From the IMG/VR virus record IMGVR_UViG_3300028888_003544: a stretch of DNA of 64,000 bases; one strand, written 5' to 3'. The notes beneath the pieces were generated by a model. That model was not told the origin of the DNA, searched no databases, and saw only the letters and a program-made list of their open reading frames with translations. The DNA comes from an uncultured virus (IMG/VR IMGVR_UViG_3300028888_003544) (Duplodnaviria > Heunggongvirae > Uroviricota > Caudoviricetes). Positions 952 to 26,806 of the stretch are shown here, piece after piece; the first letter of the stretch is position 1, and the number at the start of each line of letters is the position of its first letter. The position numbers were made by a program, and so were the translations under genes.

Positions 952-952
952 A

Positions 953-1147
953 TCACTCCATTTCGTCAGGACTGTCGTAAAACTCCATCGCTGCGAGGGC
1001 TTCATCATTATTGCTGAATTCAGAATCCTCTTCGAAGATTTCTTCCACTTCGTCAGCGACTTCTCTATTCTCCAGCTGCTCTATCTCCACCTTCTGTTTC
1101 TCGGGTGTAAACGAGCCAACCTTACCCGATTTTATTCTGTGTCTCAT
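953..1147 (-). CDS. Small acidic hypothetical protein
   Basis: MRHRIK... ORF fills the gap in the operon and ends next to the cobB start. Confidence 0.55.
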   Translation of the reverse strand: MRHRIKSGKVGSFTPEKQKVEIEQLENREVADEVEEIFEEDSEFSNNDEALAAMEFYDSPDEME

Positions 1148-1175
1148 AATTCCTATCTCCTGTTTAATACATTTG

Positions 1176-1721: not shown

Positions 1722-1951
1722 TATTTAATTTCTACCGAGCCATCTGCTTTTGTGTGTAACATACCAGATTGTTCGGCAAGGTCTAAGTCGCGAAGCGTTT
1801 CAAAGACCGACTTACCTGTACGTTGAGCCATATGACTGACAAGGAATGCCTTATTTTGGCTATTTACCCACTTACACTTCTCTTTCCAAAGATTTTCTTG
1901 AACTTCCCAGGGTTTGTATGCCATACTTCTTTCATTATAGTTTAATCCCAA
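1721..1951 (-). CDS. Hypothetical protein
   Basis: 76 aa; overlaps both neighbours. Confidence 0.6.
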   Translation of the reverse strand: MGLNYNERSMAYKPWEVQENLWKEKCKWVNSQNKAFLVSHMAQRTGKSVFETLRDLDLAEQSGMLHTKADGSVEIK

Positions 1952-2289
1952 CCTTCTTCGTCATTATTCTCCATATACCGGCTCATGCCATTGTCGTCCA
2001 TATCATCTTCTGATGCAGGATCGAAACCACGCATATTGTCATACTTCGTCGATTTGCTTGTATTTGAAGACGAAGAAGATGAATTCACTCGTGTAGACGG
2101 ATTCTCTTCTTCTTTTGATGATTCAATCTGAACGGAAATTGCTACTGTATCAGCCTGCGACTCTTCAGCTATAGGCAGACCATCAATAACCATCGGTTCC
2201 GTCTGCTTTTCTTTATTGCCACATGCCAGAAGAACTATACACGCAGATATTGCAATAAATGTCATCATCTTCTTCATCCCATCCATCAT
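1942..2289 (-). CDS. Putative lipoprotein
   Basis: KK + hydrophobic stretch + LLAC lipobox. Confidence 0.7.
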   Translation of the reverse strand: MMDGMKKMMTFIAISACIVLLACGNKEKQTEPMVIDGLPIAEESQADTVAISVQIESSKEEENPSTRVNSSSSSSNTSKSTKYDNMRGFDPASEDDMDDNGMSRYMENNDEEGWD

Positions 2290-7400: not shown

Positions 7401-8559
7401 TCAAAACCTTTAGATATAGGTTTTGGTCTGTCTTGTCCTTACTATTTCTTGTCACTTGCAACCAAGCCGACAATGCGACATTTTTACCTTCCTCCAAGTC
7501 TACGGAATAGAAATGGTTTAATGTATCATTGTCTTTTGGCTTAAATATCTGTTTAGCAACATTACTACTTTCTGGCTTTATTCCTTCCAGATTTAAAGTC
7601 GTACTGAAATCATGGGATTGCCAGAAACCAAAACCTTTATGGTCATAAAGCTCTATAAGGTTATCAAAATAGGACAGGAACGTTTCATACATTTCAACTT
7701 TATTAAGTTGATTAAGGACTCGCTGTTTTTCTTCATCTGTGAGATATAATGGTATATCGTGGTCGTCACTGTCTTTTTCATAATGAATATGATTAAGATA
7801 CTTGTTGAAAAGAACCTCACGATATGAAAGTAAGAATCTGTAATTTGGGGGAATCTGAGTAAAAATTGGGTCAGTCTCACCCTCAATAACGGCTAACTTC
7901 GCTGCACAATTCATATTCATTGTACGAAGCATGTCCTTAACCTGTGATACATTCTTGTTAGGAATTGGATATATTTTAAGCTTACCGTCGTTATAGTTGA
8001 AATATTGGTGAAGAATAGGATTCTCTTTAAAGAACTGCTCAAACTGAGTAAGATGGTTGCTTACTAAGACCTGAACCCTTTGCTTATCACCGCGGACAAT
8101 TTTGGTATAATATCTTCCCGAGACAGTTATTTCCACATCTTTCGATAAACTTGCCTCTGGAACCAAGCAACATGAGATTCCTACTGTATTAGGAAATCTT
8201 CTGCTTAAAGAATAGACATCTTCATCATCTACTTCATTTCCTAAATCTCCATTCTGTTCGTTACTATCAGTGCGCAGAAGTTCATCGTCATCTTCCTGAC
8301 CATTTGTTGATACAGTTTCATCGTCAATATCTGCTTCCTCTGATGAATCTTGTGAGGCAAACATGCCCTGAGCCTTGGGTGGGAAAAGTACTGCCGTGCT
8401 ATAAATCGAACCAGGAGTAGTGTTAATCACTTCACCATCGAATGATTGGCCCTCTTCCATTTCTATGGAAAAACGTCCTCTACACCCATTGGGGCCTATC
8501 ATTTGTTCACGGATGAAAGACTCCAAAGATTCTCTTTTAATATCAATTATGTTATTCAT
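4450..8559 (-). CDS. drmA: DISARM DrmA-like SF2 helicase
   Basis: WRPFQLAF, WFPTGGGKTEAY, RYTLRLLTTQQFQR, IIQDELHLL, ATNMISVGLDV, YIQASSRVAR; overlaps drmB. Confidence 0.85.
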   Translation of the reverse strand: MNNIIDIKRESLESFIREQMIGPNGCRGRFSIEMEEGQSFDGEVINTTPGSIYSTAVLFPPKAQGMFASQDSSEEADIDDETVSTNGQEDDDELLRTDSNEQNGDLGNEVDDEDVYSLSRRFPNTVGISCCLVPEASLSKDVEITVSGRYYTKIVRGDKQRVQVLVSNHLTQFEQFFKENPILHQYFNYNDGKLKIYPIPNKNVSQVKDMLRTMNMNCAAKLAVIEGETDPIFTQIPPNYRFLLSYREVLFNKYLNHIHYEKDSDDHDIPLYLTDEEKQRVLNQLNKVEMYETFLSYFDNLIELYDHKGFGFWQSHDFSTTLNLEGIKPESSNVAKQIFKPKDNDTLNHFYSVDLEEGKNVALSAWLQVTRNSKDKTDQNLYLKVLIVNDSSPFRESPKNYFSIVNEEVNKLCFFGIHIDLKSKFLCPYHEGNAYKDVKKDEDKLNFLYRSINDYGVGHLCSVDWEKDADGKVNHIWSEFIPSFETPDIEPVPRKKYSEYIEKGDMIIPQPYLTDDRCLQFKYLSTFSEANDPEIISGLKNFIGLYEDWIAQNEARITDVNDRVFALDNLSKCKSDMQRMKDNVDNILSINKENMRCFRLMNSAMFMQLWHNKKDNQKIIIDDDPNLNENFYKQAQDNIFPSSPHAAWRPFQLAFILLNLDGIINHPQDNGWKKRNDLVDLVWFPTGGGKTEAYLGIIALCIIYRRRMHGEQGYGVAAIMRYTLRLLTTQQFQRALRLILALEQMRRWGKKKEEFDLGAKPISIGLYVGSNSLPNKVDGKDGLDDESIKWDRREDGENKTKIPLDRCPWCGSKLRYSQKKKLYFCSNANDTCTFSDELPVRLCDEHIYKEPPTLLFGTVDKFAAIAHRVSTKPKEENKDSRRIFGHGINCLPPDLIIQDELHLLLGPLGSAVSLFECAIDQLCTRKDGTRPKIISSTATTRNTDLQIRALYDRDLNIFPHNGVDYDDSFFAFYKREKKDGQEKYISKRKYIGIMPTGRTQMTTQMRLAAILLVHRAIFEAEHSRDSGFEFAANNYYSVISYFNSLKEVGKTDALFYTEYSKYVRRLFKRVMPFGNLLECFYSMNELSEAELSGRLTGAEVNEKFAEVGQDWSIEKRLPHKENGEWVKGSTPPDYILATNMISVGLDVSRFNTIIMNSMPRNIAEYIQASSRVAREQKGLVLTLHNPFRSRDVSHYEKFREFHEKLYFYVEPISITPFSKKSVEKYLALYLAAIVRHSYDKLADRNSASKINESNLSDQIKQMVADYFNQRYERMQKPEISQLEKGLLTPELRDNIIRFVDEAIGQWEAKANEVDGLVYNSTQYQNAAALFSIPAGYDESNGDNLWTVPQSLRIVEPEAVLHIRVGNDGN

Positions 8560-8560
8560 A

Positions 8561-10984
8561 TCATGTTATAGTTACGACGTTATTCATTTTTATTTCATTG
8601 CGAAGTAATGATTGCAAAGTGGCTAAGTCGCCAACATTGCGGAGGTTTAGCAGATCATTTATATCACTATCTTTATAGTCATCGAACAAATCTTCATCAA
8701 CATCTGCCAACAAAGTGTCTTGGAGGAATTGATCCATCATGCTGTTGAATCTCCTTGTGCCGTTTTTCGTAGCAGCCTTCTTACTCCTCATTATTGAAAG
8801 ATACGGGGATATAAGTCCAAACCCTAAATACTCAAAGAGCTTCTGTTGACAAACCTTTTGTAAAGGCAGAATCATATTTGAATCTAAATCGGCCCAATGG
8901 CAGAATTGGCTCTTTTGTATTCTATTTGACTCTTTCAATCCCTTCATGACAGAATCATATGCATTGTCAAGCCCCTCTTTTTCTATCTTTTTTGAGAGAA
9001 GAATTTTCCACAAAATAATCGATGAGTCACGCTCTTCCTCAGTGATTTTACCTAATTTGTATTGCGATTCCCGAATTACCTTTTCGCGGAAATCATCCTT
9101 TTCTGATTGTAAATCTATAAAAGACTTAAGCTCGTTTGCGACATCATCCAATTTCTGCAACCTTTTAATGTCTTGGAGAATCCCCTTTTTCTTTATTTCA
9201 GTTAGTCGGTCTATTTGTGTTATCCCATTATCTGTTTCGTAGATTACGAAGTCTGTCTCAGGAATATTGAATTTACTGCCATCATCAAATTCTCCCTTGA
9301 CATATACAACAGCTCGCGATGTGCTGCGTTCATCACTAAATTCGTATTCACCCTTAGTTCTTCTTATAGAAGGCTTAACAGGACGTGGCACTTTGCCAAA
9401 AAGTGTGTTTCTTAGTTCTGAATCCAACAAATCTGCTTTATATTTATCGTAGTCGTATTTATCCCATTCATACATGTCATTAAACGCTACTCCTTGTATA
9501 ATGTCATGAATGAACTGGTCTTTACGTACAGGTATAGGGTCAAAAGAATTTGGGAACTTTGCATATGACTCTCTGACATAATGCGGGCGATATTGCAGAA
9601 CAATTACACGATTTTCTTTAATAGCATTATTCCCGTTTATTGGCTTTAAAGCAGAGTAGTCATAATACTTCACCTCTAATCGTGGAGAATATTCCTGTAG
9701 GCAAGTTGTTAATGCTCTTTTCATGGACAAATCAATGCTCTTATCCAATACTATAGCTATTTTTAGTTTTTCTCCAAACTCATCTCGTGTTTTGCTCCTT
9801 ATCAGTTTTTCCTTAATGATACAATTATGAATTATCGGTTTAACTGCCTTGGTGGCTCTTTCTAGTTGCCATTCTATTGACATTTGATAGTCATCGTCGT
9901 TATAATCAGGAAAAGATTTGTGAAGATAACTTGAGTATAGAGATATAAGTTCGTCACTTAGGCATAAAGAGAAACGGTTACGCTCTTGAATCCTGTATTC
10001 CGATTCATCAAGTAACGAACCAAGCACATCAGAAAACAGTAACTGGTCATCAGGGATAAAAATGTGCTCATATGAATTGTTCCTACAAAACATATAGTTG
10101 CTCTCTTCCTCGTCGAAAGTAATGTAATGGGGGTATTGGTAGAATTCTTTTTCACTTACCATGGGGAATTTCCGACAGAAGCCAATCCCTTTACTTATAG
10201 AATGACGAAGATGGAAAGGCTTTTTTGAGAAAGCAAAGACGAAACAGTTCTTTAACCCCATCTTGTATGCCGTATTCCAGCGTTCGAGTGAGCTTTCTTC
10301 TAACGAATTGACTTTGTCGTTATTCGTATAGAACACAAAAAGGTTATCCACCATAACATACTCATCATCTCTTTTGTGCTCTCTAAGCTGGTCTCGTATA
10401 TCGTCAGCATCGAGATTATGGCACATAATCAAGTTCTTTTCAGTAAAGAGGTTGTCGGTTTCACCATAGAACTCAGAGATGAATTTATGCTTATCAGCTC
10501 TGGATACTTGCAAATCTCCTTCTCCGCAAATTATTATGTTCTTGTGTCCTTTCTCGCCAGAATAATTATCTGTTATACTACCCAATGTTTCTCGGATGTA
10601 TTTAGCACATGGGACAGCGTACTGTTTCATGTGTTTTTCGTCTTCTTTTGTTCGAAGTACGATATTACGCATAGACGCAGCTCTTCTTTTAAGAAGCTCT
10701 CTATTATCATCGTTGTAATACAAAGATAACTTTAGAATAAGGAATTTCAACCACACTTCGCGAGCCCATTCTGGGGCATGTGGCATATAGATGATTGGGA
10801 AACAGATTTCTCCATCTTCTGCCTTCCTATTCATATAATAATCCACAATGCTGTTCATCACGTTTATGAATCGACGAGCCGATTCCTTTTGTGTATGAAC
10901 CATTGCATTGATGATGGAATCGACCTCTGCAGATGATTGGTTGGCAATATTTTTAAATTCTTCTGTCATAGGAGCCGATATCAA
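8561..10984 (-). CDS. DrmE-like protein of unknown function
   Basis: 807 aa directly upstream of drmA, the position and size of class II drmE; C-terminal WK.LL...W......P pattern recalls DrmE. Confidence 0.5.
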   Translation of the reverse strand: MISAPMTEEFKNIANQSSAEVDSIINAMVHTQKESARRFINVMNSIVDYYMNRKAEDGEICFPIIYMPHAPEWAREVWLKFLILKLSLYYNDDNRELLKRRAASMRNIVLRTKEDEKHMKQYAVPCAKYIRETLGSITDNYSGEKGHKNIIICGEGDLQVSRADKHKFISEFYGETDNLFTEKNLIMCHNLDADDIRDQLREHKRDDEYVMVDNLFVFYTNNDKVNSLEESSLERWNTAYKMGLKNCFVFAFSKKPFHLRHSISKGIGFCRKFPMVSEKEFYQYPHYITFDEEESNYMFCRNNSYEHIFIPDDQLLFSDVLGSLLDESEYRIQERNRFSLCLSDELISLYSSYLHKSFPDYNDDDYQMSIEWQLERATKAVKPIIHNCIIKEKLIRSKTRDEFGEKLKIAIVLDKSIDLSMKRALTTCLQEYSPRLEVKYYDYSALKPINGNNAIKENRVIVLQYRPHYVRESYAKFPNSFDPIPVRKDQFIHDIIQGVAFNDMYEWDKYDYDKYKADLLDSELRNTLFGKVPRPVKPSIRRTKGEYEFSDERSTSRAVVYVKGEFDDGSKFNIPETDFVIYETDNGITQIDRLTEIKKKGILQDIKRLQKLDDVANELKSFIDLQSEKDDFREKVIRESQYKLGKITEEERDSSIILWKILLSKKIEKEGLDNAYDSVMKGLKESNRIQKSQFCHWADLDSNMILPLQKVCQQKLFEYLGFGLISPYLSIMRSKKAATKNGTRRFNSMMDQFLQDTLLADVDEDLFDDYKDSDINDLLNLRNVGDLATLQSLLRNEIKMNNVVTIT

Positions 10985-12723
10985 TTTGACGAGTTAACTT
11001 TGTCAAGAAGTAATATTTCAAGATCAAACATTGCACGAGTCATTCCGACATACAGTTCAAACTTGTCTATTTCTTCCCGGTTGTTTAACACTAATAGCAC
11101 ATGCTTTGTTTCAAGCCCTTTGTAGGACAAAATTGTAGTTAAACACAACCTGTCTTCTTCATATCTGACATTCTCGGGCTTTAATTCTTTTATAAGTTCA
11201 ATATCAGAAAGACGTTCAAATAGTTGCTTGTTATGGGAGTCCGTCAGAACTACATACTCTGACCATTTCTTTTCCCCACTTCTCAAATCTGTTAGGAGGG
11301 CCTTTATATGCTTTACCAATTCGTTAGTCCCTTGGTAGTGATGTATTTTTATAGCAGGGTCATTACTTCCCTCAATATCTCTTATTATTATGGAAGTCTG
11401 TGTTCCGTCTTCACTTTCCAAGATCTTGTTGGCTTCATCAACGATCTGCTTATTATTAGGAACTCTTTTGTTCTCATTCAAAACGAAATGGGTTCCATAT
11501 CGCGAAATGTCTTCCGCGTAACTATCTAATTCTCGAATGTCTTTTCTATATCCTTGCTCAGTATCAAAGAAAACAAGGTATCTACCTGTTCCAAGACCAT
11601 TACCGTTTATAGATGTAAGTGAATTTAGGACTTCCGCAGCCCCTTTGTCAAAAATGTCTTGCGCTTCATCAATGACAATAAAATCATATGGGATAAAGTC
11701 ATCTGATTCGCGAAGTGTGTCAAACAGTCGCTTCATTTTCTCAATAAGGGATGAAGAACCTTCCTGAAAATCATCGAAGGTGACAAACTTGTGAATTGGG
11801 TCCAGTTTCGATATAAATGAAATAAACTGATATACCTCGCAATTCTCCAGCCCGACCTTTAACAGCTGGTTGCGTACCGTCGCTGCCAGAAGATTATTCC
11901 AGCAAATATAAACGCCCCGTAAGGACTTGTATCTGCGGATAAATGCTTTCGCTATGGTTGTTTTACCAGTACCAGGGCCTCCCTCGATAATAATGCGATT
12001 GTTTTTTTCCAGACTCTTGAATGTATCGAGATTCTGAATGTTCAGCCAGTCAAGAATGCTTTGGTAACTGGTTTCTGTATAGCTGAAATCAGGGCGAATA
12101 TTTGCGACCAGATGATGAATCGCAATATCTACCTCATTTGGCTTCAAATCCTCAGTAAACCAATGTTTTCTCTCTTTGTCAATGCTAAGTACAGATAGAC
12201 AGAACTCAGCAAAAGACTCTGATTGATTCTCCTGTTGGTATGCAGACCATAATTTATATCCCATATCTAACTTGGGAAGATGGTTCGTGTGAGCCATCTT
12301 TGTGTGCGGGAACGCACATACCGTGTCTATAAAGATTTGGCTGCTATTAATAATCTTGTTGTTCAGCAACGCATATTTGTAGTCTTCAGCTTGCTGGAAA
12401 GGCGACCTGTCCATAGTCATCCCGTCTCCTTTGCTAAAGAAGAACTGACCATTTTGGATACCAACGTTACCACCTTTTACTTCAACAACGAGTGCCCCTT
12501 TTTCACATACTAAGAAGAAATCAATTTGAATTTCGGATTGTCTGCTATTACCAATGGGCAAACGCAAATCATGCCAAAAATGCCAGGTAAGATTGCTCTT
12601 TTCACAATCTTTCCATATCCTGCGATACATGTCTATTTCACCATATAATGGTGTTCCATCATTATGTTTGATGATGGTTTCCAAATTGTTCAGGTTTTTA
12701 TAGTCATGACTTATTATTGGCAT
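10981..12723 (-). CDS. NERD nuclease fused to SF1 (UvrD/DUF2075-like) helicase
   Basis: QIDFFLV...VVEVKGG...PFQQA; GGPGTGKT, IDEAQD, SYKGLE, YVGMTRA. Confidence 0.85.
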   Translation of the reverse strand: MPIISHDYKNLNNLETIIKHNDGTPLYGEIDMYRRIWKDCEKSNLTWHFWHDLRLPIGNSRQSEIQIDFFLVCEKGALVVEVKGGNVGIQNGQFFFSKGDGMTMDRSPFQQAEDYKYALLNNKIINSSQIFIDTVCAFPHTKMAHTNHLPKLDMGYKLWSAYQQENQSESFAEFCLSVLSIDKERKHWFTEDLKPNEVDIAIHHLVANIRPDFSYTETSYQSILDWLNIQNLDTFKSLEKNNRIIIEGGPGTGKTTIAKAFIRRYKSLRGVYICWNNLLAATVRNQLLKVGLENCEVYQFISFISKLDPIHKFVTFDDFQEGSSSLIEKMKRLFDTLRESDDFIPYDFIVIDEAQDIFDKGAAEVLNSLTSINGNGLGTGRYLVFFDTEQGYRKDIRELDSYAEDISRYGTHFVLNENKRVPNNKQIVDEANKILESEDGTQTSIIIRDIEGSNDPAIKIHHYQGTNELVKHIKALLTDLRSGEKKWSEYVVLTDSHNKQLFERLSDIELIKELKPENVRYEEDRLCLTTILSYKGLETKHVLLVLNNREEIDKFELYVGMTRAMFDLEILLLDKVNSSN

Positions 12724-12736
12724 ATCTCAATTTTCT

Positions 12737-14149
12737 TTACTCCCAAAGTTTGGGATCTTTTAAGTTAGACATCTTATAGTTAAACATCTCAAGTAGTTCC
12801 TCTCGATGTTCAGGAAACATCTCCAGTGTATCAAGTAGCGTCTGCAAGGTTTTGCAAATTTTTCGCACTTTACCTCGCGAATCTTCTCTATCGTAATATC
12901 CCGTTTCATAATCCCGTTGGAACTCTTCAAATGGCTTTATGGGCTTAAGAACTTCAAAACCTGCGCCTTGTTCCCAGAACGTTTGGTTACGATAAGAATA
13001 TTCCCAGAACGACATCTTCTTGTAGAAGGCCTGCTGATTACACCAGCGGGCGATTTGAATGTACAAGTTTGAAATCGGAGCGTTGTGGTAGTCTTCATGA
13101 CGCATTAGGTAACCTACACAACCGTAGGTCATCAGCACCTTGATGCGCTGGAAGATTTCCCATATATCACGATAGAATTTCTGATAACCTTGCTCTGTTT
13201 GTTTAAATCCGCAGAACAGGTAGAATTTTGTACCCTTCTTGGGATTGTAATGCTTCCAGATCTTTAAGGCTCTTTCTATTAGTGGACGGTCTTTCCAATT
13301 ATCAAAGGCAAAGATAAAGTCACCATGATACTTCGTTTTTGAGAGCATCTCGGCCATTTCCGCACCATGAGGACTTTGTGCCAGCATACGCTCGTCAAGC
13401 CCTTGACGGAACTGAAAAGGTCGTCCCGTGTCTATCAGCTGTTGCAGTCTGGCACGCCAAATGGCAGGGTCGGCTGCAAGGAAGTTATCATCCCACAGAT
13501 AGATATAGGGGCGCACCAATCGACCTTGCTCATCACGTTCTTCATCAAGGAACCATTCAAGGTCGGAATACGGGAAGATTTTGTCTTCTAACTTGTTGAT
13601 GCAGAATGGGCAATGACGGATACAACCACGAGTAAGGAAGCCTATACTATACTGCTGATAGTCCTTATACTTCTCACGCTTTATACCCTCAGCCACCTTG
13701 CGGTCAACAAATGAATCGTAAAGATGGTAGAAAGGCATCTGGCGAGCAAGATCTATACCATTCTTTCGAGGACCACCACGATGATTGGGATATTGGCAAA
13801 GGAACTCGTCTCGTTCTAACTGAGTCATATCGTCATCACGCTTCTGACGGTAGATGTTCACGTTCAGTTCGTTGGCATAGAAGCCCGTGCCACCTCTGCG
13901 GAATTTACGCTTCTGGGCGGGCGTAGCATTCTCATAGAACGCTGGCATCTGGGTGAACGTGAACACGCGGGATATATAGATTAGTTTGTAAGGTGTGATA
14001 TCCTCGTTCTGATCAATAATCAGTTTGAAGTCAATGCCGTTGTCATTTAGGAATCCTGCCAGTTTCATCAAGACAAGATTAGGGTGCCGCGTCCCGTTGC
14101 AAAGCAGGTCGGCATCCACAAGTCCTATCTTGAGTTTCTTTTTTGGCAT
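12737..14149 (-). CDS. Radical SAM protein with an N-terminal B12-binding-like domain
   Basis: TRGCIRHCPFC (CxxxCxxC), WDDNFL, N-terminal IGLVDAD...PNLVLMKL and GGTG. Confidence 0.8.
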   Translation of the reverse strand: MPKKKLKIGLVDADLLCNGTRHPNLVLMKLAGFLNDNGIDFKLIIDQNEDITPYKLIYISRVFTFTQMPAFYENATPAQKRKFRRGGTGFYANELNVNIYRQKRDDDMTQLERDEFLCQYPNHRGGPRKNGIDLARQMPFYHLYDSFVDRKVAEGIKREKYKDYQQYSIGFLTRGCIRHCPFCINKLEDKIFPYSDLEWFLDEERDEQGRLVRPYIYLWDDNFLAADPAIWRARLQQLIDTGRPFQFRQGLDERMLAQSPHGAEMAEMLSKTKYHGDFIFAFDNWKDRPLIERALKIWKHYNPKKGTKFYLFCGFKQTEQGYQKFYRDIWEIFQRIKVLMTYGCVGYLMRHEDYHNAPISNLYIQIARWCNQQAFYKKMSFWEYSYRNQTFWEQGAGFEVLKPIKPFEEFQRDYETGYYDREDSRGKVRKICKTLQTLLDTLEMFPEHREELLEMFNYKMSNLKDPKLWE

Positions 14150-18688: not shown

Positions 18689-18946
18689 TCAGCCGACGAT
18701 GGCCAGACGGTTGTCGGCAATATCGTACCTGACGGGATGGGCAAAGGTGATAGTCTTACCGTCATAGACAGCTGAAACATCGATACCTCTACGTTTGAAC
18801 TCGTCGATGAGGGCCTGGTCGTGATAGGCACGCATACTAGTCCAGCCAGTATTGCCGACCTGATGATTGAAAACGGTTACTAACTCGGGAATCTGCATGT
18901 CTGCAAACTGCAGGGCATACTTCGTGTAATAAATGTGCTGTTGCAT
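18689..18946 (-). CDS. Hypothetical protein
   Basis: 85 aa with its own TATCTTTG promoter at 19070-19077. Confidence 0.65.
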   Translation of the reverse strand: MQQHIYYTKYALQFADMQIPELVTVFNHQVGNTGWTSMRAYHDQALIDEFKRRGIDVSAVYDGKTITFAHPVRYDIADNRLAIVG

Positions 18947-19201
18947 AACTTTTTGTTTTTGAAGTTTATAAATGTTGCTTCCGCATCGTACTGACCACCG
19001 TGGCTAAGTTATCTTATAAGCTCGGTTGGCGAGTCACCCTTTCGGGTACTGCTCTTGATGCTTCGGGTGCAAAGATACACAAAAGTTCTGGAAAATGCTC
19101 CTATTTGATTAAAAAAGTTAAAACAGAAGCAGATTTTACAACTGGCAGTTGTTTTTCTCAATATTTTTTCGTACCTTTGCACCAGATAAAACAGATATAG
19201 T

Positions 19202-19768: not shown

Positions 19769-20110
19769 ATGAAAAAGAAGACACTTGAATTCCTCGAAGC
19801 TCACAAGAGCGAAACGCCATCAAAATGGCGCGAGGAAGCGGAATGGAGGCGCGATAATTGGTCGTGGCTGCGGCACTCACAAAAGATTGCCGTGAAGGTG
19901 CTGTTGCAGATGAAGCAGGATGGACTGACACAGAAGGCTCTCGCTGAACGCATGGGCTGCACCCAGCAGTACGTGTCAAAGATTCTAAAGGGTAAAGAGA
20001 ATATGTCGCTTGATACGCTCTCAAAACTGGAGGATGCACTTGGCATCAACCTGATTTACGACGAGCAAGTGGCATATCCAAACATGGTAGCCGAAGAGGT
20101 ATTTGCGTGA
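19769..20110 (+). CDS. XRE HTH protein, putative HigA-like antitoxin
   Basis: LTQKALAERMGCTQQYVSKILKGKEN. Confidence 0.75.
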   Translation: MKKKTLEFLEAHKSETPSKWREEAEWRRDNWSWLRHSQKIAVKVLLQMKQDGLTQKALAERMGCTQQYVSKILKGKENMSLDTLSKLEDALGINLIYDEQVAYPNMVAEEVFA

Positions 20111-20127
20111 ACTTGTACATGCAGCAC

Positions 20128-20165
20128 AAAAAGAGGATGACAAGGCTTTTGCACCCCGTCATCCT
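20128..20165 (-). terminator. Intrinsic terminator of the rtcB operon
   Basis: AGGATGAC/GTCATCCT stem with a T-run on the minus strand. Confidence 0.6.
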
Positions 20166-20217
20166 TCTCATTATTGAAAGCTTGTAAAGGAATTACATTG
20201 CTTGTTGCCTGGGGACT

Positions 20218-22482
20218 TTATCCATTCAGCAACTTCGTTACTTCTGCAGGATTAAGTGCCCACTCGTATGTGTATGCTTCATCTGCTTCCTCAGCATTCT
20301 CTACTGAAGTCAGGCTTTGAGCCTTGGCCTTCATATCAAGTAGTTCACCGATAGAGAGCTTCGACTCCAGCTTGTGGAGCAGTGCCTCGATGGACTCGCT
20401 GTTAACCCCTCTCATTGTCTGCGCAGTGAATGGCATTTCGAGCCAGATGATTTCGCGCTTTGCCACATCAAGCACACCGAATACCAGACCCTTGGAGAGG
20501 TTGCCCTCGCTAATACGAACCATGTGCTGTACACAAGACGGGTCATAGGCCACACCCTTCTCCTCAGAGATTTTCATCGGATTGGCAGAATCCATCCATC
20601 CTACTACCAGATTAGGAGAAAGAGCACCTGTGGAATAGGCATTGCAGGTGAAGGTGACATATACAGCACCAGCAGCCTCCAGCTCAGGCAGCGACAGTTC
20701 AATGTACTCAGCAGTACCAACCATTTCAGGGATGGAACGGATATCGCCAGAGTGCTTGGCACCTACACAAGTCAGATTGTAGTAGGCGCACTCTGCAATT
20801 TGGCAGTTCGGCAGTGTAACACGAGCGCTCAAGTCCATATCGAGGTGCTGCGCATGCAAGCCCTTACCCCACTGGAGGAAAAGGCGGACGGCATCACCCT
20901 CCACAGGAAATCGGGTTCCCATCAGGGCACAAGATGCATCCTGAATGGTTGCCGAACGATCGCCCACGCTGACAGGTATATTGTACAGAGCGGGATCGAT
21001 GAAGATGGTCTTCGCCTCTGTCTGCTGGATAGCAAAGCGTCTTGCCATCGAGGCCTTATAGAGGTCGTTTACGGCTCCTGTCATCGCCTTGCGGGCTTCA
21101 TCATCATAGAGAGCCAACAGCTTGTTAGGCTCAATCTGATGGGTAACACCAGTGATGGGTCTGGCCAGACGCACCTCCTTGGGGTCGAAGTATGCCTCTG
21201 CAGCATTGCCGAGTGAGAGCAGCAGACGGGCTGGCATTTTGTCGGCAACCTCCTCAAAGGCAGCCAGCACCTTGTCGCTACCGAAGCGGAGCATGGATGC
21301 GAACAGGCAACGAGCGAAGAGACCTGGACGTTCCTTCAGCAATGCCAGCGTCATGTCGGCATCGTTCTCAGAACGAGCCTTGTCAACACGGCCTTGCCAA
21401 GTGGAATAATCCTGCTTGTAGAACACATCGAGAATCTCTGCCAGATGGTCAAAGCCATTCTTACGGGAGTATTCACCCAGACGGAGGGCACGGATCATGC
21501 GAACCCACATACCACGCTTGGGATTCATATTCTCAGCTGCCTGTCTTGCAGTCATAGGAATGGCGTTCAGCCACAATGCCACACGCAGACATGCCTTGCG
21601 GTCGTACTTCAGCATCAGCTTCTTCTTCATATCCTTTGCTGCATCAGCACCTCTGTCGAGTGGCCCCCACATGTGGAAGTACAGCTTACGGGCATGGGCT
21701 ACAAGAGTCTTTGGCTCAATAATCTGCACATAGCCGGTCTTCTCGTACCAGAGGTAACGGAGCACGTCGGTAGGAGTCTTCAGCAACTTTGATGCCTCGT
21801 CTGCCTTATCCTGTTCCACCAACAACTTAATGACGAGCATAGCAGTTTCCTTCATGGTGATGTTGGCATCCTCGGGAAGAGAGAACTCACGAAGCAGTTG
21901 CTCCAATGAGTCTTTCTGAGTCCCAGCAAGAGGAGTGGACGATGCCAAAAGAGAAGTGAACACATGCTTCATGTCCTCTATGGTGAACAGACGCAGTTCT
22001 TTCAACTTGCTGGCCTGTCCCTTATAGACAAAATCGGCAGTCTCAAACGGTGTGCCACAGAACGGGCAACCATTGTAGCGCTCAATGGGGAAAGTCCCTT
22101 CAGGAATAAGGTGACCGCAAGGAAGTGTCGTTCCCTTGAAACCTGCCTCCTTACCAAAGATGTTGGCAATCCAGGTAATCAGATGGTCAGCAAGGCTCTC
22201 ACCCGTTGACACATTCCATCCCTTGACGAGTGGTGCCCAATTGAGCTTCACACCCATCACGTCGTTGATACACTCTGTAATTTCTGCAAGTCTGTCTGTG
22301 GGAACTACATTCAGAGCGTGAAGAAGTTCCTCACTGACGCAGAAACCATTCTCCTTTAACCTGGCCGCGAATGCCATCACTGGCACAGAAGCCTCGGACT
22401 TCATGTTGATGTTCTCACGATTAATGTCGAGGAACACTGCACGGTAGCGCAAAGCTACTCTTGTCAAAGTCTTGTTACTCAT
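20218..22482 (-). CDS. Prok-RING_4 / ROT(TROVE)-like repeats / TerD-like protein
   Basis: LPCGHLI...RYNGCPFCG RING; TPTDVLR; C-terminal LDMDLS...HSGDIR...AEYI TerD-like region. Confidence 0.75.
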   Translation of the reverse strand: MSNKTLTRVALRYRAVFLDINRENINMKSEASVPVMAFAARLKENGFCVSEELLHALNVVPTDRLAEITECINDVMGVKLNWAPLVKGWNVSTGESLADHLITWIANIFGKEAGFKGTTLPCGHLIPEGTFPIERYNGCPFCGTPFETADFVYKGQASKLKELRLFTIEDMKHVFTSLLASSTPLAGTQKDSLEQLLREFSLPEDANITMKETAMLVIKLLVEQDKADEASKLLKTPTDVLRYLWYEKTGYVQIIEPKTLVAHARKLYFHMWGPLDRGADAAKDMKKKLMLKYDRKACLRVALWLNAIPMTARQAAENMNPKRGMWVRMIRALRLGEYSRKNGFDHLAEILDVFYKQDYSTWQGRVDKARSENDADMTLALLKERPGLFARCLFASMLRFGSDKVLAAFEEVADKMPARLLLSLGNAAEAYFDPKEVRLARPITGVTHQIEPNKLLALYDDEARKAMTGAVNDLYKASMARRFAIQQTEAKTIFIDPALYNIPVSVGDRSATIQDASCALMGTRFPVEGDAVRLFLQWGKGLHAQHLDMDLSARVTLPNCQIAECAYYNLTCVGAKHSGDIRSIPEMVGTAEYIELSLPELEAAGAVYVTFTCNAYSTGALSPNLVVGWMDSANPMKISEEKGVAYDPSCVQHMVRISEGNLSKGLVFGVLDVAKREIIWLEMPFTAQTMRGVNSESIEALLHKLESKLSIGELLDMKAKAQSLTSVENAEEADEAYTYEWALNPAEVTKLLNG

Positions 22483-22498
22483 AACGTCTTTAATTTAA

Positions 22499-22560
22499 AA
22501 GGTAATTGACTGACAGGAACAGAACCACAATCTATTTTGAAGTATGTCAGCCTTGACCTT
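22499..22560 (-). ncRNA. Y-RNA-like hairpin, copy 2
   Basis: AAGGUCAAGG-CUGACA-UACUUC...UGUCAG-UCAAUUACCUU; covaries with the copy at 22701. Confidence 0.6.
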
Positions 22561-22576
22561 GTTAATAATGTTCTTG

Positions 22577-22697
22577 AGCTGCGAGCAGGACTCGAACCTG
22601 CGACCCATAGTCTAACAGAAATGAAGTATGTGGTGATTGGTCCTTCTCAGGAAATGTCGTCACAAACCTATTGTTCTACCAACTGAACTATCGCAGC
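22577..22697 (-). ncRNA. tRNA-like RNA with an expanded anticodon arm
   Basis: Acceptor GCTGCGA/TCGCAGC, D arm GTTC-AGTTGGTA-GAAC, T arm GCAGG-TTCGAGT-CCTGC; about 55-nt insert containing CATACTTCA in place of the anticodon loop. Confidence 0.75.
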
Positions 22698-22700
22698 ATA

Positions 22701-22778
22701 AAGAGAGGTAATTGAACAGCTAATTGGAGCCTCTTTAGCATAAGATCGAAGAAGTAAGCTGTCCTTGACCTTCTCTTT
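22701..22778 (-). ncRNA. Y-RNA-like hairpin, copy 1
   Basis: AAGGUCAAGG-ACAGCU-UACUUC...AGCUGU-UCAAUUACCU. Confidence 0.6.
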
Positions 22779-22782
22779 TATT

Positions 22783-22875
22783 TGAGCGGCGGGCTGGAAT
22801 CGAACCAGCAGTAACCATTAGGTGTAAGCAAACGTTTGGGCCATCACTTAGGCAATTGCGAAGCTTACCGCCGCT
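22783..22875 (-). ncRNA. tRNA-like RNA with acceptor and T arm but no canonical D or anticodon arm
   Basis: GCGGCGG/CCGCCGC acceptor, GCTGG-TTCGATT-CCAGC T arm, same T-C-A 3' end as the 22577 element. Confidence 0.65.
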
Positions 22876-22882
22876 ACCGTTT

Positions 22883-24055
22883 TTATCCTTTGATAACAGC
22901 CACCGGCAGGAGTCGGGTCTTAACCTTTACCAGGTCTGCCTCGTTGGCTATTACCTCCTCAATGTCCTTATAGGCTCCAGATGCCTCCTGCATATCTTCC
23001 TGAGAGCGTATGGCATGAACGATGCCCTTTGCTTCAAGTTGAGCCACTTCCTGCTGTAGATTCAGCGTTTTGATGGCCATTGAACGGGATAGGACACGAC
23101 CAGCTCCATGAGAGCATGAGCAGAATGAGTCTGGATTACCAAGACCTTCTACGATATACGATGCCGTACCCTGTGAGCCAGGGATAATACCGATGACTCC
23201 TTCGCGGGCAAGTGTCGCTCCCTTGCGGTGTACGATGACATCGTGACCGAAGTGGTGCTCTACTGCTGCATAGTTGTGAGCAATGTTTATCATCGGTTCA
23301 AACTCTATGCCAGGCAGTGAGTCTGCAAGAATCTCCTCGATACGCTCCATCATGAGCTTCCTGTTGCAGAGAGCGAAGTCTATACAGTACCTCATCTCTC
23401 TCCAGTACATCTCAAACTCCTTGCTACCTCTGGCGAGGAAAGGCAGATGTATGTCAGGCGATACATTTGAATACCATCGCGCATTGAGGGTTGCTGCGAT
23501 CTTGTTGTAGTAATCACCGACCTGCTTCCCGAGGTTGCGTGAACCAGAGTGAATCATGATCCAGAGCGTTCCCTCTTCGTCCTTTTGCAACTCAATGAAG
23601 TGGTTGCCGCCTCCTAACGTTCCGACTTCGTGAAGGATAGAGACCTGACGACGCTTAACTACTTCGAACCTGTCGAGGTCATAGCCTTCAGGCAGGTACT
23701 TCTCATCCTGAGCCTCCTTGTGGTGATCCATTCCCAAAGGGATGCGCTCACGGATTCCCTTCATGATTTGCTTGCGAAGAACCTCTACGGGTATCTCGCT
23801 TACCTTCCAGTTAGTCTTCACGGCACACATTCCGCACCCGATATCTACACCTACTGCGTTGGGAATTACTGCGTCCGTACATGCAAGCACACCACCGATA
23901 GGCATTCCCATACCAGCATGCACGTCGGGCATGATGGCCAGGTGATGGAAGAGGAAGGGCAGCGTGGTCAGGTTTTCAATCTGACGCATAGCAGAGTCTT
24001 CCACATTGTCCGTCCAAATCTTGACAGGGCGGTTGTTGATCATCTTTACTTCCAT
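22883..24055 (-). CDS. rtcB: RtcB RNA ligase
   Basis: PDVHAG, GVDIGCG, GTLGGGNHFIE, HSGSR, HNYA, HRKGAT, SHGAGR. Confidence 0.95.
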   Translation of the reverse strand: MEVKMINNRPVKIWTDNVEDSAMRQIENLTTLPFLFHHLAIMPDVHAGMGMPIGGVLACTDAVIPNAVGVDIGCGMCAVKTNWKVSEIPVEVLRKQIMKGIRERIPLGMDHHKEAQDEKYLPEGYDLDRFEVVKRRQVSILHEVGTLGGGNHFIELQKDEEGTLWIMIHSGSRNLGKQVGDYYNKIAATLNARWYSNVSPDIHLPFLARGSKEFEMYWREMRYCIDFALCNRKLMMERIEEILADSLPGIEFEPMINIAHNYAAVEHHFGHDVIVHRKGATLAREGVIGIIPGSQGTASYIVEGLGNPDSFCSCSHGAGRVLSRSMAIKTLNLQQEVAQLEAKGIVHAIRSQEDMQEASGAYKDIEEVIANEADLVKVKTRLLPVAVIKG

Positions 24056-24152
24056 TGTCTTTTCTCTTTTAATTGTTACACATCTTAAATAATAATAGTG
24101 GTGCCTCGTAGCTCATCTTCAATACGTATCCAGTTTCTTCTGAATCGCACTG

Positions 24153-24190
24153 CAAAATTAAATATATACTACGCAATCTTTCTGCGTAGT
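24153..24190 (-). promoter_or_regulatory. rtcB promoter with perfect palindromic operator ACTACGCA-N7-TGCGTAGT
   Basis: Operator at 24168-24190, 7 bp upstream of TAATTTTG (24160-24153). Confidence 0.8.
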
Positions 24191-24236: not shown

Positions 24237-24274
24237 TCTGCGCAAATAGGTTGCGTAGTTTTTTCGTATCTTTG
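24237..24274 (+). promoter_or_regulatory. WYL gene promoter with operator TCTGCGCA-N7-TGCGTAGT
   Basis: Operator 7 bp upstream of TATCTTTG (24267-24274). Confidence 0.75.
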
Positions 24275-24301
24275 TGCCAACATAAGCAAAAAACGTGGAT
24301 T

Positions 24302-25327
24302 ATGCCTGCAAACAAGAATGCGTTGATTCGCTACAAAACCATTGATAATTGTCTTCGCAACCGCTATCGCCGGTGGACGCTCGAAGACCTGGTTGATGCC
24401 TGTTCGGATGCCCTCTATGATATGGAGGGAATCAACAAGGGAGTCTCTGTGCGAACCGTCCAGGGTGATATACAGATGATGCGTTCTGACAAACTTGGCT
24501 ATAATGCTCCTATCGAGGTCTATGACCACAAGTATTACCGTTATGCTGACAAAAACTATTCCATCATGGATATGCCGATGTCGCAGAACGACTACGACGT
24601 GATGCAGGAGGCCGTTGACATGCTTCGTCAGTTAGAAGACTTCGACCAGTTCTCTGAAATGTCGGATGTGGTCAGCCGTTTGCAGGATAAGTTAGCCATC
24701 AGCAGGCATAACCGCAAGCCTATCATCCATTTTGACAGTGTGCCGAATCTGGAAGGTATCCGTCTGCTTAACCCACTTTATAACTATATTGCTCATCAGC
24801 AGACGCTGCGCATCATGTACCAGTCATTCAATGCGAGAAAACCAACGGAGTTTATCCTCTGCCCGTATCTGCTGAAGGAGTTCCGAAACCGTTGGTTCCT
24901 GTTCGGTTCAAAGGCCGATGACCTGAAGCTTTTCAATCTACCTCTTGACCGAATCAAGAGTGTTGAGCCTGTGGAAGTCCCTTATCGTGAGAATCCCGAT
25001 TTCGACTCAGAACACTTCTTCGACGATGTAATAGGGGTTAGCAAGAATATCAATAACAAACCGCGATGTATCAGGTTCTGGGCGAATCGGGAGCAAAGCC
25101 ACTATATCAAGACGAAGCCCATTCATCGATCTCAGCAGGTGGTTAGCGAGAATCCGGAGGATGGAAGCTGTATCTTCCAGATAGACGTCGTCATCAACTT
25201 TGAGATGTATTCGGTCTTTATGTCTTATGGCTCTGGCATTAGGATAATCTATCCCAGAAATGCTGTCATGTACATGCGGGATAAATTCAAGGAGGCACTG
25301 GACTTATATGATGCAGCTAACGAATAA
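24302..25327 (+). CDS. wHTH-WYL-WCX transcriptional regulator
   Basis: VSVRTVQGDIQMMR HTH; PYLLKEFRNRWFL, LDRI WYL motifs; divergent from rtcB. Confidence 0.9.
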   Translation: MPANKNALIRYKTIDNCLRNRYRRWTLEDLVDACSDALYDMEGINKGVSVRTVQGDIQMMRSDKLGYNAPIEVYDHKYYRYADKNYSIMDMPMSQNDYDVMQEAVDMLRQLEDFDQFSEMSDVVSRLQDKLAISRHNRKPIIHFDSVPNLEGIRLLNPLYNYIAHQQTLRIMYQSFNARKPTEFILCPYLLKEFRNRWFLFGSKADDLKLFNLPLDRIKSVEPVEVPYRENPDFDSEHFFDDVIGVSKNINNKPRCIRFWANREQSHYIKTKPIHRSQQVVSENPEDGSCIFQIDVVINFEMYSVFMSYGSGIRIIYPRNAVMYMRDKFKEALDLYDAANE

Positions 25328-25702: not shown

Positions 25703-26116
25703 ATGCCTGCGAATAAGAATGCCTTGATAAGGTACAAAACGATAAACAACTGTTTGAGAAACAGATACAGAAGATGGACGCTTGACGACCTCGTAGATGC
25801 CTGCTGCGATGCGCTCTACGACATGGAGGGCATCACCAAGGGTGTTTGCTCCAGGACTGTACAGATGGATATACAGATTATGAGGTCTGACAAACTGGGC
25901 TACAACGCTCCAATAGAGGTGTACGACAGGATATACTACAGATACGCCGATCCTAACTACTCCATTACTGAGATGCCTTTGTCTGTTGATGACTGCAAGC
26001 TAATAAAAGAGGCTATCGCTTTGCTTGGGAAGAAAGAAGATGCAGATAAGGCAAGAACTTTGAAAGTATTAAAGAAGGTTGAGAACAGGCTCGTATCTAT
26101 TCTGAACTTCGCATAA
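25703..26116 (+). CDS. Truncated WYL-regulator paralogue (wHTH only)
   Basis: First ~95 aa nearly identical to the 24302 protein; stops before the WYL domain. Confidence 0.8.
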   Translation: MPANKNALIRYKTINNCLRNRYRRWTLDDLVDACCDALYDMEGITKGVCSRTVQMDIQIMRSDKLGYNAPIEVYDRIYYRYADPNYSITEMPLSVDDCKLIKEAIALLGKKEDADKARTLKVLKKVENRLVSILNFA

Positions 26117-26160: not shown

Positions 26161-26161
26161 G

Positions 26162-26234
26162 TCTGGATAGCGAGACTCGAACTCACTCCACAAACTCCCA
26201 AAGTTCGGATGCTACCATTAAACACCATATCCAG
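26162..26234 (-). tRNA. tRNA-Pro(TGG)
   Basis: Cloverleaf; CGAAC-TTTGGGA-GTTTG; C1:G72, A73. Confidence 0.85.
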
Positions 26235-26243
26235 TTTATAATG

Positions 26244-26316
26244 TAGTCGGTACGAGGATCGAACTCGTGTGGACAGATTGAAAATCTGTAATCCTGACCT
26301 ATTAGATGAACCGACC
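26244..26316 (-). tRNA. tRNA-Glu(TTC)
   Basis: ACAGA-TTTTCAA-TCTGT; T arm ACGAG-TTCGATC-CTCGT. Confidence 0.85.
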
Positions 26317-26322
26317 TCCTTG

Positions 26323-26396
26323 GGAGTTTGACAGGATTCGAACCTGCGTAAACAAGAGCCACAACCTTGCGCCTGAACCTCTCGGCCACAAACTCC
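26323..26396 (-). tRNA. tRNA-His(GTG)
   Basis: CAAGG-TTGTGGC-TCTTG; G-1:C73. Confidence 0.85.
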
Positions 26397-26402
26397 ATAT
26401 AG

Positions 26403-26473
26403 TTGCCCCAGAAGGATTCGAACCTTCACTAGCAGAGCCAAAACCTGCTGTGCTGCCGTTATACCATAGGGCT
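26403..26473 (-). tRNA. tRNA-Gln(TTG)
   Basis: GCAGG-TTTTGGC-TCTGC; unpaired 1:72. Confidence 0.85.
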
Positions 26474-26481
26474 GTCAATCG

Positions 26482-26563
26482 TTGGGGTGGTAGGACTCGA
26501 ACCTACGAAGCCAAAAGGCGGCAGATTTACAGTCTGCTCTCGTTGCCGCTGGAGAACACCCCA
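26482..26563 (-). tRNA. tRNA-Tyr(GTA)
   Basis: GCAGA-CTGTAAA-TCTGC; long variable arm. Confidence 0.85.
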
Positions 26564-26571
26564 ATATTGAG

Positions 26572-26644
26572 TGGAGCCTCGTGGAGTTGAACCACGTTCT
26601 CAGGATTTTCAGTCCTGCGCATACACCAAGTCTGCCAAAGCTCC
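26572..26644 (-). tRNA. tRNA-Phe(GAA)
   Basis: CAGGA-CTGAAAA-TCCTG. Confidence 0.85.
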
Positions 26645-26652
26645 CTGACTTG

Positions 26653-26724
26653 TTGCCCCAGATGGATTCGAACCACCACCTCCAGATCCAGAATCTGACG
26701 TGCTAACCATTACACCATAGGGCA
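26653..26724 (-). tRNA. tRNA-Gln(CTG)
   Basis: TCAGA-TTCTGGA-TCTGG. Confidence 0.85.
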
Positions 26725-26731
26725 GTAACTG

Positions 26732-26806
26732 TGACTCGTGAGAGACTCGAACTCCCGACCCTGACGTTCGTAGCGTCATGCTCTAATCCAACTGAGCTAA
26801 CGAGCC
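26732..26806 (-). tRNA. tRNA-Arg(ACG)
   Basis: TGACG-CTACGAA-CGTCA. Confidence 0.9.

Follow-up and report, generated by a model that had tools for sequence, protein, structure and literature searches.

The 64,000-nucleotide (nt) stretch of DNA analysed here belongs to an uncultured virus of the Caudoviricetes (IMG/VR record IMGVR_UViG_3300028888_003544). The whole stretch is hereafter referred to as the window, with positions counted from its first letter. Its minus strand carries a cassette of four small RNA elements, two tRNA-like elements (T1 and T2) alternating with two hairpins (H1 and H2) in the order T1, H1, T2, H2, between rtcB, which encodes an RNA ligase, and a gene for a protein of 754 amino acids (aa). 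A single module is present in all four elements and covaries strongly across related loci of the Bacteroidales. The explanation favoured here, and held to be moderately probable, is that the elements are Y-RNA-like small-RNA partners of the downstream protein, which combines a zinc finger, a helical part and a TerD fold, within an RtcB repair module; the RNAs would be released by processing and would bind the protein.

Four RNA elements built on one module

The features of the proposed unit are given below, where R1 and R2 denote the covariance models for the hairpins and for the T2-type elements, respectively, which are described in the next section.

22883..24055, minus strand: rtcB RNA ligase, the first gene of the unit (Pfam RtcB, PF01139, E-value 2.8e-110, 369.9 bits, above the cut-off)
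~22782..22875, minus strand: T1, tRNA-like element (sequence and R2 match)
22702..22775, minus strand: H1, module hairpin (R1, 59.2 bits)
22577..22697, minus strand: T2, tRNA-like element (Rfam RF00005 and R2 match)
22496..22563, minus strand: H2, module hairpin (R1, 65.7 bits)
20218..22482, minus strand: gene for the 754-aa protein (listing of open reading frames, ORFs)
20134..20165, minus strand: terminator-like hairpin with a 13-base-pair (bp) stem and a T run, 3' of the stop codon of the 754-aa gene (terminator scan)
24251..25327, plus strand: WYL-WCX regulator, divergent from rtcB (Pfam WYL 4.4e-11, WCX 1.9e-07)

An earlier note, made from the sequence of the window alone, had placed four alternating elements on the minus strand at these positions, and the sequence together with the R1, R2 and Rfam matches bears this out. 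The complete cassette folds into four separate domains (z = -2.59).

The module common to the four RNAs consists of a GGN/N'CC helix, a bulged C, an AA:UU step, a bulge of 2 nt on the 3' strand, a covarying stem of 8 bp (strands S and S') and a single-stranded UACUUC. H1 and H2 have AGGUCAAGG...UCAAUUACCU in common and differ in their inner stems by compensatory changes; H1 is laid out as 5'-AGGUC-AAG-S-UUACUUC-variable-S'-CAAUUACCU-3', and H2, the most widely conserved element of the cassette, ends 14 nt upstream of the ATG of the 754-aa gene. Both were seeds of the hairpin model R1, and they are its only matches in the window. The consensus of 100 distinct hairpins, taken from related loci by anchoring on the conserved flanks, is 5'-N3A-GGU-C(C/U)-AA-G-[stem]-(U/A)UACUYC-variable(14-53 nt)-[stem']-C-(A/C)AUU-ACC-UN3-3', in which GGU pairs with ACC and AA with UU, the 5' strand bulges one or two pyrimidines and the 3' strand two bases, and the last pair of the 8-bp inner stem alternates between A-U and U-A.

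In the tRNA-like elements this module is found in permuted order. It reads S'-CAAUU-GCC-loop(8)-GGC-CC-AA-S-UUACACC in T1 (22821..22866, minus strand) and S'(UGUGACGA)-CAUU-UCC-loop(6)-GGA-CC-AA-S(UCACCACA)-UACUUC in T2 (22623..22664, minus strand), and across loci S'-(C/A)AUU-NCC-loop(4-12)-GGN-C(C)-AA-S-AUACUUC at the site of the anticodon loop. The GGN/N'CC helix of the tRNA-like elements covaries between loci, being found as GGA/UCC, GGC/GCC, GGU/ACC and GGG/CCC. The earlier note had described the helix with the bulged C and the compensatory inner-stem changes in the hairpins alone; the helix was read in the sequence and covaries, the compensatory changes are read directly, and the presence of one module in hairpins and tRNA mimics alike is a new observation.

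T2 matches the Rfam tRNA family (RF00005) with 54.3 bits (gathering score 29) and an insert of 52 nt in the anticodon loop, and scores 114.1 bits with R2. Its architecture, as obtained from RNAalifold and pair counts, comprises acceptor, D, short anticodon and T stems, the module replacing the anticodon loop; G18, G19 and GTTCGA are invariant in the T2-type elements. When T2 was examined as a canonical tRNA, no 7-nt anticodon loop bearing a readable anticodon was found, the loop bases covarying as a stem strand. No single parent tRNA for T2 emerges either, its best canonical matches being those for Lys, Thr and Phe. T1 combines a T arm with an acceptor stem of 7 perfect pairs, a module arm replacing the D and anticodon arms, and the alignment of 13 T1-type copies contains no D arm. 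Its best Rfam match, tRNA-Sec with 24.2 bits, is below the gathering score of 47, and it scores 37.3 bits with R2 at 22782-22874. Neither T1 nor T2 was called as a tRNA by ARAGORN. In both, the element's own two ends pair to form the acceptor stem and remain free, and a loop of 4-12 nt closes the module. T1 ends in ...CCGCCGC-U-CAA and both mimics end in ...GC-U-C-A-A; like the eight tRNA genes of the window, they encode no CCA. Most of what the earlier note had said of these elements stands, including the GC-U-C-A ends, the UACUUC in three of the four elements with UUACACC in its place in T1, and mimics with free ends, acceptor and T arms and no anticodon loop; a D arm was found in T2 and is absent from T1.

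The cassette stretch is present in 12 runs recorded as RNA, among 20 listed. Four runs were mapped, of which X2 and X4 look identical, as one data set filed twice; no meaning can be read into the uncovered parts in X2/X4 or the depth bumps over T2. An identical contig of 2805 nt (21141-23945) and a contig of 4878 nt (20000-24080), both from RNA libraries, bridge rtcB, the cassette and the protein gene, which fits one transcription unit. The terminator scan gave no terminator-like site on the minus strand between rtcB and the 754-aa gene. A scan for sigma-70 promoters was at chance level (6 against 4.5 expected), with a consensus that does not cover Bacteroidetes promoters.

Conservation and covariation across related loci

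Related loci were gathered through the 754-aa protein, which gave 80 loci of the Bacteroidales, mostly from rumen and gut Prevotellaceae, with a total of 759,173 bases. R1 was built from 39 hairpin seeds picked for at least 6 of 7 inner pairs and R2 from a MAFFT alignment of 32 T2-type elements picked for a perfect acceptor stem. With both strands of the 80 loci searched, all 132 R1 matches (E-value <= 0.01) lie on the strand of the 754-aa gene just upstream of it, as do all 40 R2 matches of at least 78.7 bits in the 759 kb; canonical tRNAs in these loci reach at most 61.8 bits with R2 and T1-type elements 30.8-50.3 bits. The same specificity was observed in five whole genomes (3.3-4.1 Mb), where the 13 R1 matches and the 5 R2 matches (at least 100 bits) are all at the 754-aa locus and canonical tRNAs score at most 68.7 bits.

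Covariance models from related loci had been named in the earlier note as a check, and they brought out strong covariation. In 121 distinct hairpins, aligned by fitting to R1, whose seeds had been selected for inner-stem pairing, 92.0% of the cells are paired against 74.1% after shuffling, with 413 double-change cells against 126.2, and none of 500 shuffles reaches the observed values. In the 32 T2-type elements 93.1% of the cells are paired against 78.1% after shuffling, with 146 double-change cells against 35.5, and again 0 of 500 shuffles reach this. Slid controls gave 28-49% pairing for the 121 hairpins and 26-49% over all the hairpin and T2 tests. The parts of T2 that had not been selected for pairing are also well paired (D stem 96.9%, anticodon stem 88-90%, module 86.5%); the T stem is 100% paired, though it had been selected for pairing. 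RNAalifold returns the acceptor, D, T and module stems from the T2-type alignment.

The 754-aa protein is present in 10 of 401 genomes in an even sample of the Bacteroidota. Nine of these ten loci were searched (L085 was omitted as the same place as L004), and in seven of the nine both hairpins (25 matches of R1) and T2-type RNAs (8 matches of R2 with at least 71.7 bits) are found just upstream of the gene. Neither R1 nor R2 matched in the two divergent loci, L089, where a transposase-like ORF is immediately upstream, and L090, which has no evident RNA. Metagenome contigs searched with the distant family members P0113 and P0111 gave no match, and no relative was found in viral contigs searched with the single 754-aa protein.

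Among the 66 loci with at least 600 nt upstream of the gene, a hairpin is present in 63 and a T element in 32; three of the 34 loci lacking a T element also lack a hairpin. The proximal hairpin is at most 45 nt from the start codon in 56 of the 63 hairpin-bearing loci, and the RNA arrays hold one to eight elements per locus. T elements occur in 16 of 19 loci with rtcB against 16 of 47 without it (odds ratio 10.3, Fisher p = 3e-4, not corrected for relatedness). When all the ORFs of the 80 loci were clustered, the only recurrent neighbours were WYL regulators (32 loci) and rtcB (22 loci), and the unit therefore moves between varied contexts. In L064 and L065 rtcB and the WYL gene are downstream of the protein gene instead of upstream, while T2 and H elements remain upstream of it. 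One related locus, L058, is on NZ_CP152347.1 (181,845 bp), an extrachromosomal record of Segatella copri strain HDE04, as would be expected if large mobile replicons carry the module.

The 754-aa protein and the comparison with Ro60 and Y RNA systems

The 754-aa protein is composed of N-terminal helices, a C-x-H...C-x2-C zinc finger (~118-143), a helical repeat (~170-488) and a TerD-fold domain (~526-698). It matches NCBIfam NF041916 (MXAN_6230/SCO0854 family RING domain-containing protein) with 178 bits (E-value 2.7e-52) over residues 12-689, the cut-off being 600, and by sequence is thus classed as a relative of NF041916 below the equivalog cut-off. Pfam Prok-RING_4 matches with 24.1 bits, below its threshold of 27, and no other Pfam family was found. 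The family is widespread, with 1559 cluster representatives at E-value <= 0.001, and its NCBI name derives from members in Streptomyces and Myxococcus. A sequence-profile search of solved structures gave nothing at E-value <= 0.01, and the ESM Atlas returned only the protein's own clusters, one of them labelled 'TerD family protein'.

An AlphaFold2 model of the protein, built with 57 sequences, has a predicted local distance difference test score (pLDDT) of 92.2 and a predicted TM-score of 0.90; a model of residues 1-505 has a pLDDT of 92.8. Residues 526-698 match TerD structures (2qz7_B, Z 13.7 over 152 residues; 2kxt, Z 12.4; Foldseek 3ibz, 2.8e-04). For the helical part, the top match among 48,161 chains is Rsr of Deinococcus radiodurans (2nvo_A), with Z 7.4 over 241 residues and a root-mean-square deviation of 4.7, model residues 170-488 being aligned onto residues 36-359 of the chain. 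Two more Ro60 proteins match the same part, those of Thermus phage phiLo (9l5y_B, Z 6.5 over 250 residues) and Xenopus (1yvp_A, Z 5.3-5.7 over 273-324 residues), and the structural matches beyond these three Ro60 proteins align at most 143 residues. The modelled likeness to Ro60 is graded as suggestive, for reasons given below. In five genomes that hold the locus no canonical TROVE gene was found, while control genomes do have one. NF041916 also matches, below its cut-off, in D. radiodurans, the bacterial model organism for Ro60; the gene concerned may be that of a TerD protein or rsr.

YrlA RNAs have a closed acceptor loop, lack an anticodon loop and resemble a permuted tRNA, their 5' and 3' ends forming the Ro-binding stem, according to 10.1101/312249. 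Of 201 Bacteroidota genomes sampled, 14 have a canonical TROVE gene, and 13 such loci were examined; Rfam YrlA matches lie beside eight of the 13 genes (36.6-46.6 bits, E-value <= 1.6e-4, below the gathering score). UACUYC is present in seven of these eight YrlA RNAs. Five of the seven that were dissected have it immediately after an 8-nt strand, seven positions of which pair with a partner located behind the D arm, and here it precedes the T loop by 28-29 nt. The YrlA at L095 likewise has a distance of 29 nt, the partner strand having been mis-assigned to the T-arm region by the script, and at L092 the distance is 15 nt. The 3' strand of these YrlA RNAs runs on as ...GUU(A/G)CC and the 5' strand is GUG(C/U)(C/U)GUA(G/A). 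In T2 of the window UACUUC follows S and precedes the T loop by 31 nt, and CAUUUCC follows S'; in six T2 elements examined, this one included, the junction is 21-32 nt before the T loop and the element strand ends in ...AUUNCC. BLAST of T2 against YrlA gave D-arm and T-arm matches in swapped order, as expected of a circular permutation. Given the common junction, the swapped order of the arms and the topology of YrlA, T2 is best described as a probable YrlA design with normal tRNA connectivity. The resemblance to Y RNAs put forward in the earlier note is thus strengthened, since genuine YrlA RNAs of the Bacteroidota share the stem and the UACUUCG junction. As in YrlA, D and T arms that would form an elbow are present in T2, while T1 is without a D arm; the adjoining gene is that of the 754-aa protein, in which Pfam finds no TROVE, instead of rsr or another TROVE gene.

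The closest parallel is the Rsr-YrlA/YrlB-RtcB system, known as the rsr-yrlBA-rtcBA operon in Salmonella and its relatives (PMC4201824 and 10.1101/312249), where small RNAs likewise lie beside RtcB and a large protein that is an RNA-binding candidate in the present case. As described there, the RNAs of that system are also modular, combining a bulged protein-binding helix with an effector domain, and one class has a tRNA-like elbow while the other has none. H1 and H2 resemble YrlB and other Y RNAs in lacking a tRNA part and in carrying the module on a variable apical domain, and the tRNA-like elements resemble Bacteroidota YrlA in the distance of the stem-UACUUC(G) junction from the T loop. 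The GGUC(C)AAG of the cassette is similar to the GGUCCGA contacted by Xenopus Ro60 and to its bacterial counterpart GNCGAAN0-1G, as given in PMC4201824. The differences are equally distinct. T1 and T2 have free acceptor ends and a loop-closed module, whereas in YrlA, as described in 10.1101/312249, the acceptor loop is closed and the ends form the Ro-binding stem. Unlike Rsr and Ro60, the partner cannot be classed by sequence as a TROVE protein and has a C-terminal TerD fold where Ro60 has vWA; unlike the rsr operon, the regulator is of the WYL type rather than RtcR, and the RNAs occur in arrays of one to eight.

Three further systems were compared. The b7a-tRNA that accompanies a Band-7 protein and RtcB (Burroughs and Aravind 2016, as cited in 10.1101/312249) is said to 'strongly resemble an authentic tRNA', and the cassette is similar to it in having an RNA of predicted tRNA topology beside RtcB and a putative scaffold protein. 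It differs from the cassette, to judge by its description, in that the latter has a Y-like module instead of an anticodon loop and is accompanied by hairpins that consist of the module alone; no Band-7 gene was found among the conserved neighbours of the 80 loci. With the vertebrate Y RNAs and their Ro60 partner the cassette shares a bulged helix, a GGUCC-type motif on the 5' strand, a modular design and the structural match of the 754-aa model to 1yvp_A; unlike these RNAs, the elements have no Rfam Y_RNA match, are probably cotranscribed with protein genes and in some cases have a tRNA scaffold. The 3' tRNA-like structures described for long non-coding RNAs are cut by RNase P and so release neighbouring RNAs (10.1101/312249), and the cassette is similar in that a tRNA-shaped element in a longer transcript could serve as a processing signal. 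The difference is that the tRNA-like unit of the cassette itself carries the putative protein-binding module, and its processing is predicted. In the literature searched, this system is not described; the architecture of the protein may already appear in Burroughs and Aravind 2016 or in Burroughs et al. 2011.

Interpretation and genomic context

According to the favoured explanation, rtcB, the RNAs and the protein gene would be transcribed as one unit under the divergent WYL regulator. The precursor would be cut at the tRNA-like units through RNase P, 3' trimming and CCA addition, which would also free the hairpins, and the released RNAs would bind the 754-aa protein, the shared module being the putative docking site for this protein encoded directly downstream. 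The tRNA-like RNAs may link the protein to tRNA-handling enzymes or to RtcB, so that the particle, borne on a mobile defence island, would repair damaged tRNA or rRNA. The hairpin next to the start codon possibly doubles as an autoregulatory leader, which is compatible with the rest of this scheme.

Several observations weigh against this explanation. Hairpins are found without any T element in 31 of the 66 loci, usually at the 5' untranslated region, and rtcB adjoins the 754-aa gene in only about a quarter of the loci. As to the protein, the earlier note had called it TROVE-like; the weak fold match to Rsr goes some way towards this, while Pfam finds no TROVE (PF05731) at E-value <= 0.01, hhalign of the family alignment against 13 canonical TROVE proteins of the Bacteroidota gives a probability of 0.2% and Foldseek with residues 1-505 returns nothing at E-value <= 0.001. 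The Z of 7.4 itself is within the range flagged as common for helical repeats, and the likeness to Ro60 is therefore graded no higher than suggestive. As to the RNAs, a search of Rfam had been named in the earlier note as a check. T2 proved to match tRNA with its insert, and the matches to tRNA-Sec and YrlA (RF02553) were below gathering, the latter with 13.9 bits (E-value 9.6, gathering score 69) across the T arm of T2 and part of H2; Y_RNA (RF00019) is not among the six matches listed for 22300-23000 at E-value <= 10. At the 13 canonical TROVE loci R1 gave noise only (best 18.5 bits, a stub of 22 nt). The internal loops therefore differ in sequence, which fits recognition by a different partner. 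Lastly, the contigs that bridge the unit cannot reveal RNA ends, and DNA carry-over into the RNA libraries is possible.

The hairpins that stand without a T element would also be expected if the cassette were a purely cis-acting leader of the 754-aa messenger RNA, that is, a protein-bound autoregulatory operator or an attenuator, instead of a source of stable trans-acting RNAs. This is the least improbable of the rival explanations, though still considered unlikely. It is favoured also by the closeness of the proximal hairpin to the start codon in most loci, by an ACCUUUU after this hairpin in most loci and by RNA-library contigs that run through the cassette into the gene. A leader does not account well for up to eight tandem elements in distinct and conserved subtypes, or for T units that retain the full tRNA elbow and acceptor features typical of RNase P substrates, and the YrlA/YrlB parallel in rsr operons points the opposite way; for the last hairpin, the leader and trans roles are not mutually exclusive. 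Somewhat less likely again is a role of the tRNA-like RNAs as decoys or sentinels for toxins that cleave tRNA, with cuts in the UACUUC region being sensed by the WYL regulator and resealed by RtcB, and the protein only protecting or presenting the RNAs. The defence and mobile island (DISARM DrmA and DrmB, SIR2, RadC, IS110 and more WYL regulators), the array of eight tRNA genes 3.3 kb away with similar arrays near related loci, the co-occurrence of rtcB with T elements and the induction of the Salmonella rtc operon by damaged tRNAs (PMC7790460) are in keeping with such a role. Clustering of the ORFs of the 80 loci linked no nuclease to the locus, and UACUUC is also present in hairpins without a tRNA body and in ordinary YrlA, on which account it is more likely a structural or protein-contact element.

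T1 and T2 could also be intron-bearing tRNA genes, from which the module is excised and the halves are joined into working tRNAs by the neighbouring RtcB. The site of the insert at the anticodon loop and the adjoining rtcB agree with this, and in the window the first bases past the anticodon stem resemble a 7-nt loop. One RNA-library contig (run X1, depth 77) even joins 22605 to 22671. This joint skips the entire anticodon arm of T2, has only 20 letters on one side and was mapped at 90% likeness, and is most probably a canonical tRNA from another organism. Moreover, the 5' strand of S' supplies the 'anticodon' bases, which covary with S and have no fixed identity, the geometry is not that of a bulge-helix-bulge (2 nt on one side of the junction and ~18 nt on the other) and T1 is without a D arm. 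An intron is very improbable. Y-RNA-like partners of the 754-aa protein are preferred to all three alternatives.

A more far-reaching version of the favoured explanation is offered tentatively and with considerable doubt. The 754-aa family may be a second, so far unrecognised class of Ro60-like RNA-binding scaffold, and its RNAs 'Y-tRNAs' processed by RNase P and CCA addition, in which the anticodon loop would have grown into a docking module of Ro type, a missing link between tRNA and Y RNA of which YrlA would be a circularly permuted descendant; the particle would then be a mobile-element-borne recruiter of RtcB to toxin-cut tRNAs.

The window as a whole is a mobile and defence island, in which the following features were identified.

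253-14149: defence cluster with SIR2, DISARM, a NERD/UvrD-type helicase and ORFs without family
253-1008: SIR2
2286-4460: DISARM DrmB
4450-8559: DISARM DrmA
10981-12723: NERD/UvrD-type helicase
26161-26806, minus strand: tightly spaced array of eight tRNA genes (Pro-TGG, Glu-TTC, His-GTG, Gln-TTG, Tyr-GTA, Phe-GAA, Gln-CTG, Arg-ACG)
37528-47238, minus strand: ORF of 3236 aa with matches to Eco57I-type methylase, helicase C-terminal, DUF6926 and MutS domain I
55806-56702, minus strand: WYL-WCX regulator
59268-60170, plus strand: WYL-WCX regulator

The ORFs without family in the defence cluster include two of 802 and 470 aa, and PADLOC has no model for the 754-aa protein or RtcB. The 3236-aa ORF is flanked by two M23-peptidase/glucosaminidase genes and RadC, and the island also carries IS110 and, in all, three further WYL regulators. 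The tRNA array may be a back-up tRNA set on an apparent mobile element; similar arrays are near the related loci L017, L019, L020, L038 and L064. Adjoining the array, a 137-aa ORF (25703-26116, plus strand) is close to a copy of the N-terminal region of the WYL regulator (24251-25327), with an identical start (MPANKNALIRYKT...), and has no Pfam match; from its sequence it looks like a truncated WYL paralogue. The divergent intergenic region between rtcB and this regulator contains related palindromic hairpins, ACTACGCA...TGCGTAGT and CTGCGCAA...TTGCGTAG, at 24168-24190 (minus strand) and 24238-24258 (plus strand), which could be candidate operators for the WYL regulator and which both also came up as terminator-like in the terminator scan. 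With 47.4 bits in Rfam, a SAM-I/IV riboswitch match at 18945-19066 (minus strand) exceeds the gathering score of 41.1; it is located within the island, upstream of small minus-strand ORFs.

The findings suggest a possible new version of the Ro/Y-RNA repair particle in rumen bacteria. Bacterial Y RNAs and Ro60 are tied to RtcB in many genomes, and the locus is a natural variant in which to ask what the tRNA-like domain does: the partner protein was either replaced or has become unrecognisable by divergence, the ends of the tRNA mimic are those of an ordinary tRNA and the putative docking module can be studied by itself in the hairpins. For a widespread protein family whose only annotation is 'RING domain-containing', the cassette moreover offers a first hint at function. 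As related loci are present in cultivable gut and rumen Bacteroidales, questions about the ligand of the module and its UACUUC, the action of tRNA-processing enzymes on Y-type RNAs and the origin of YrlA from tRNA would be open to experiment.

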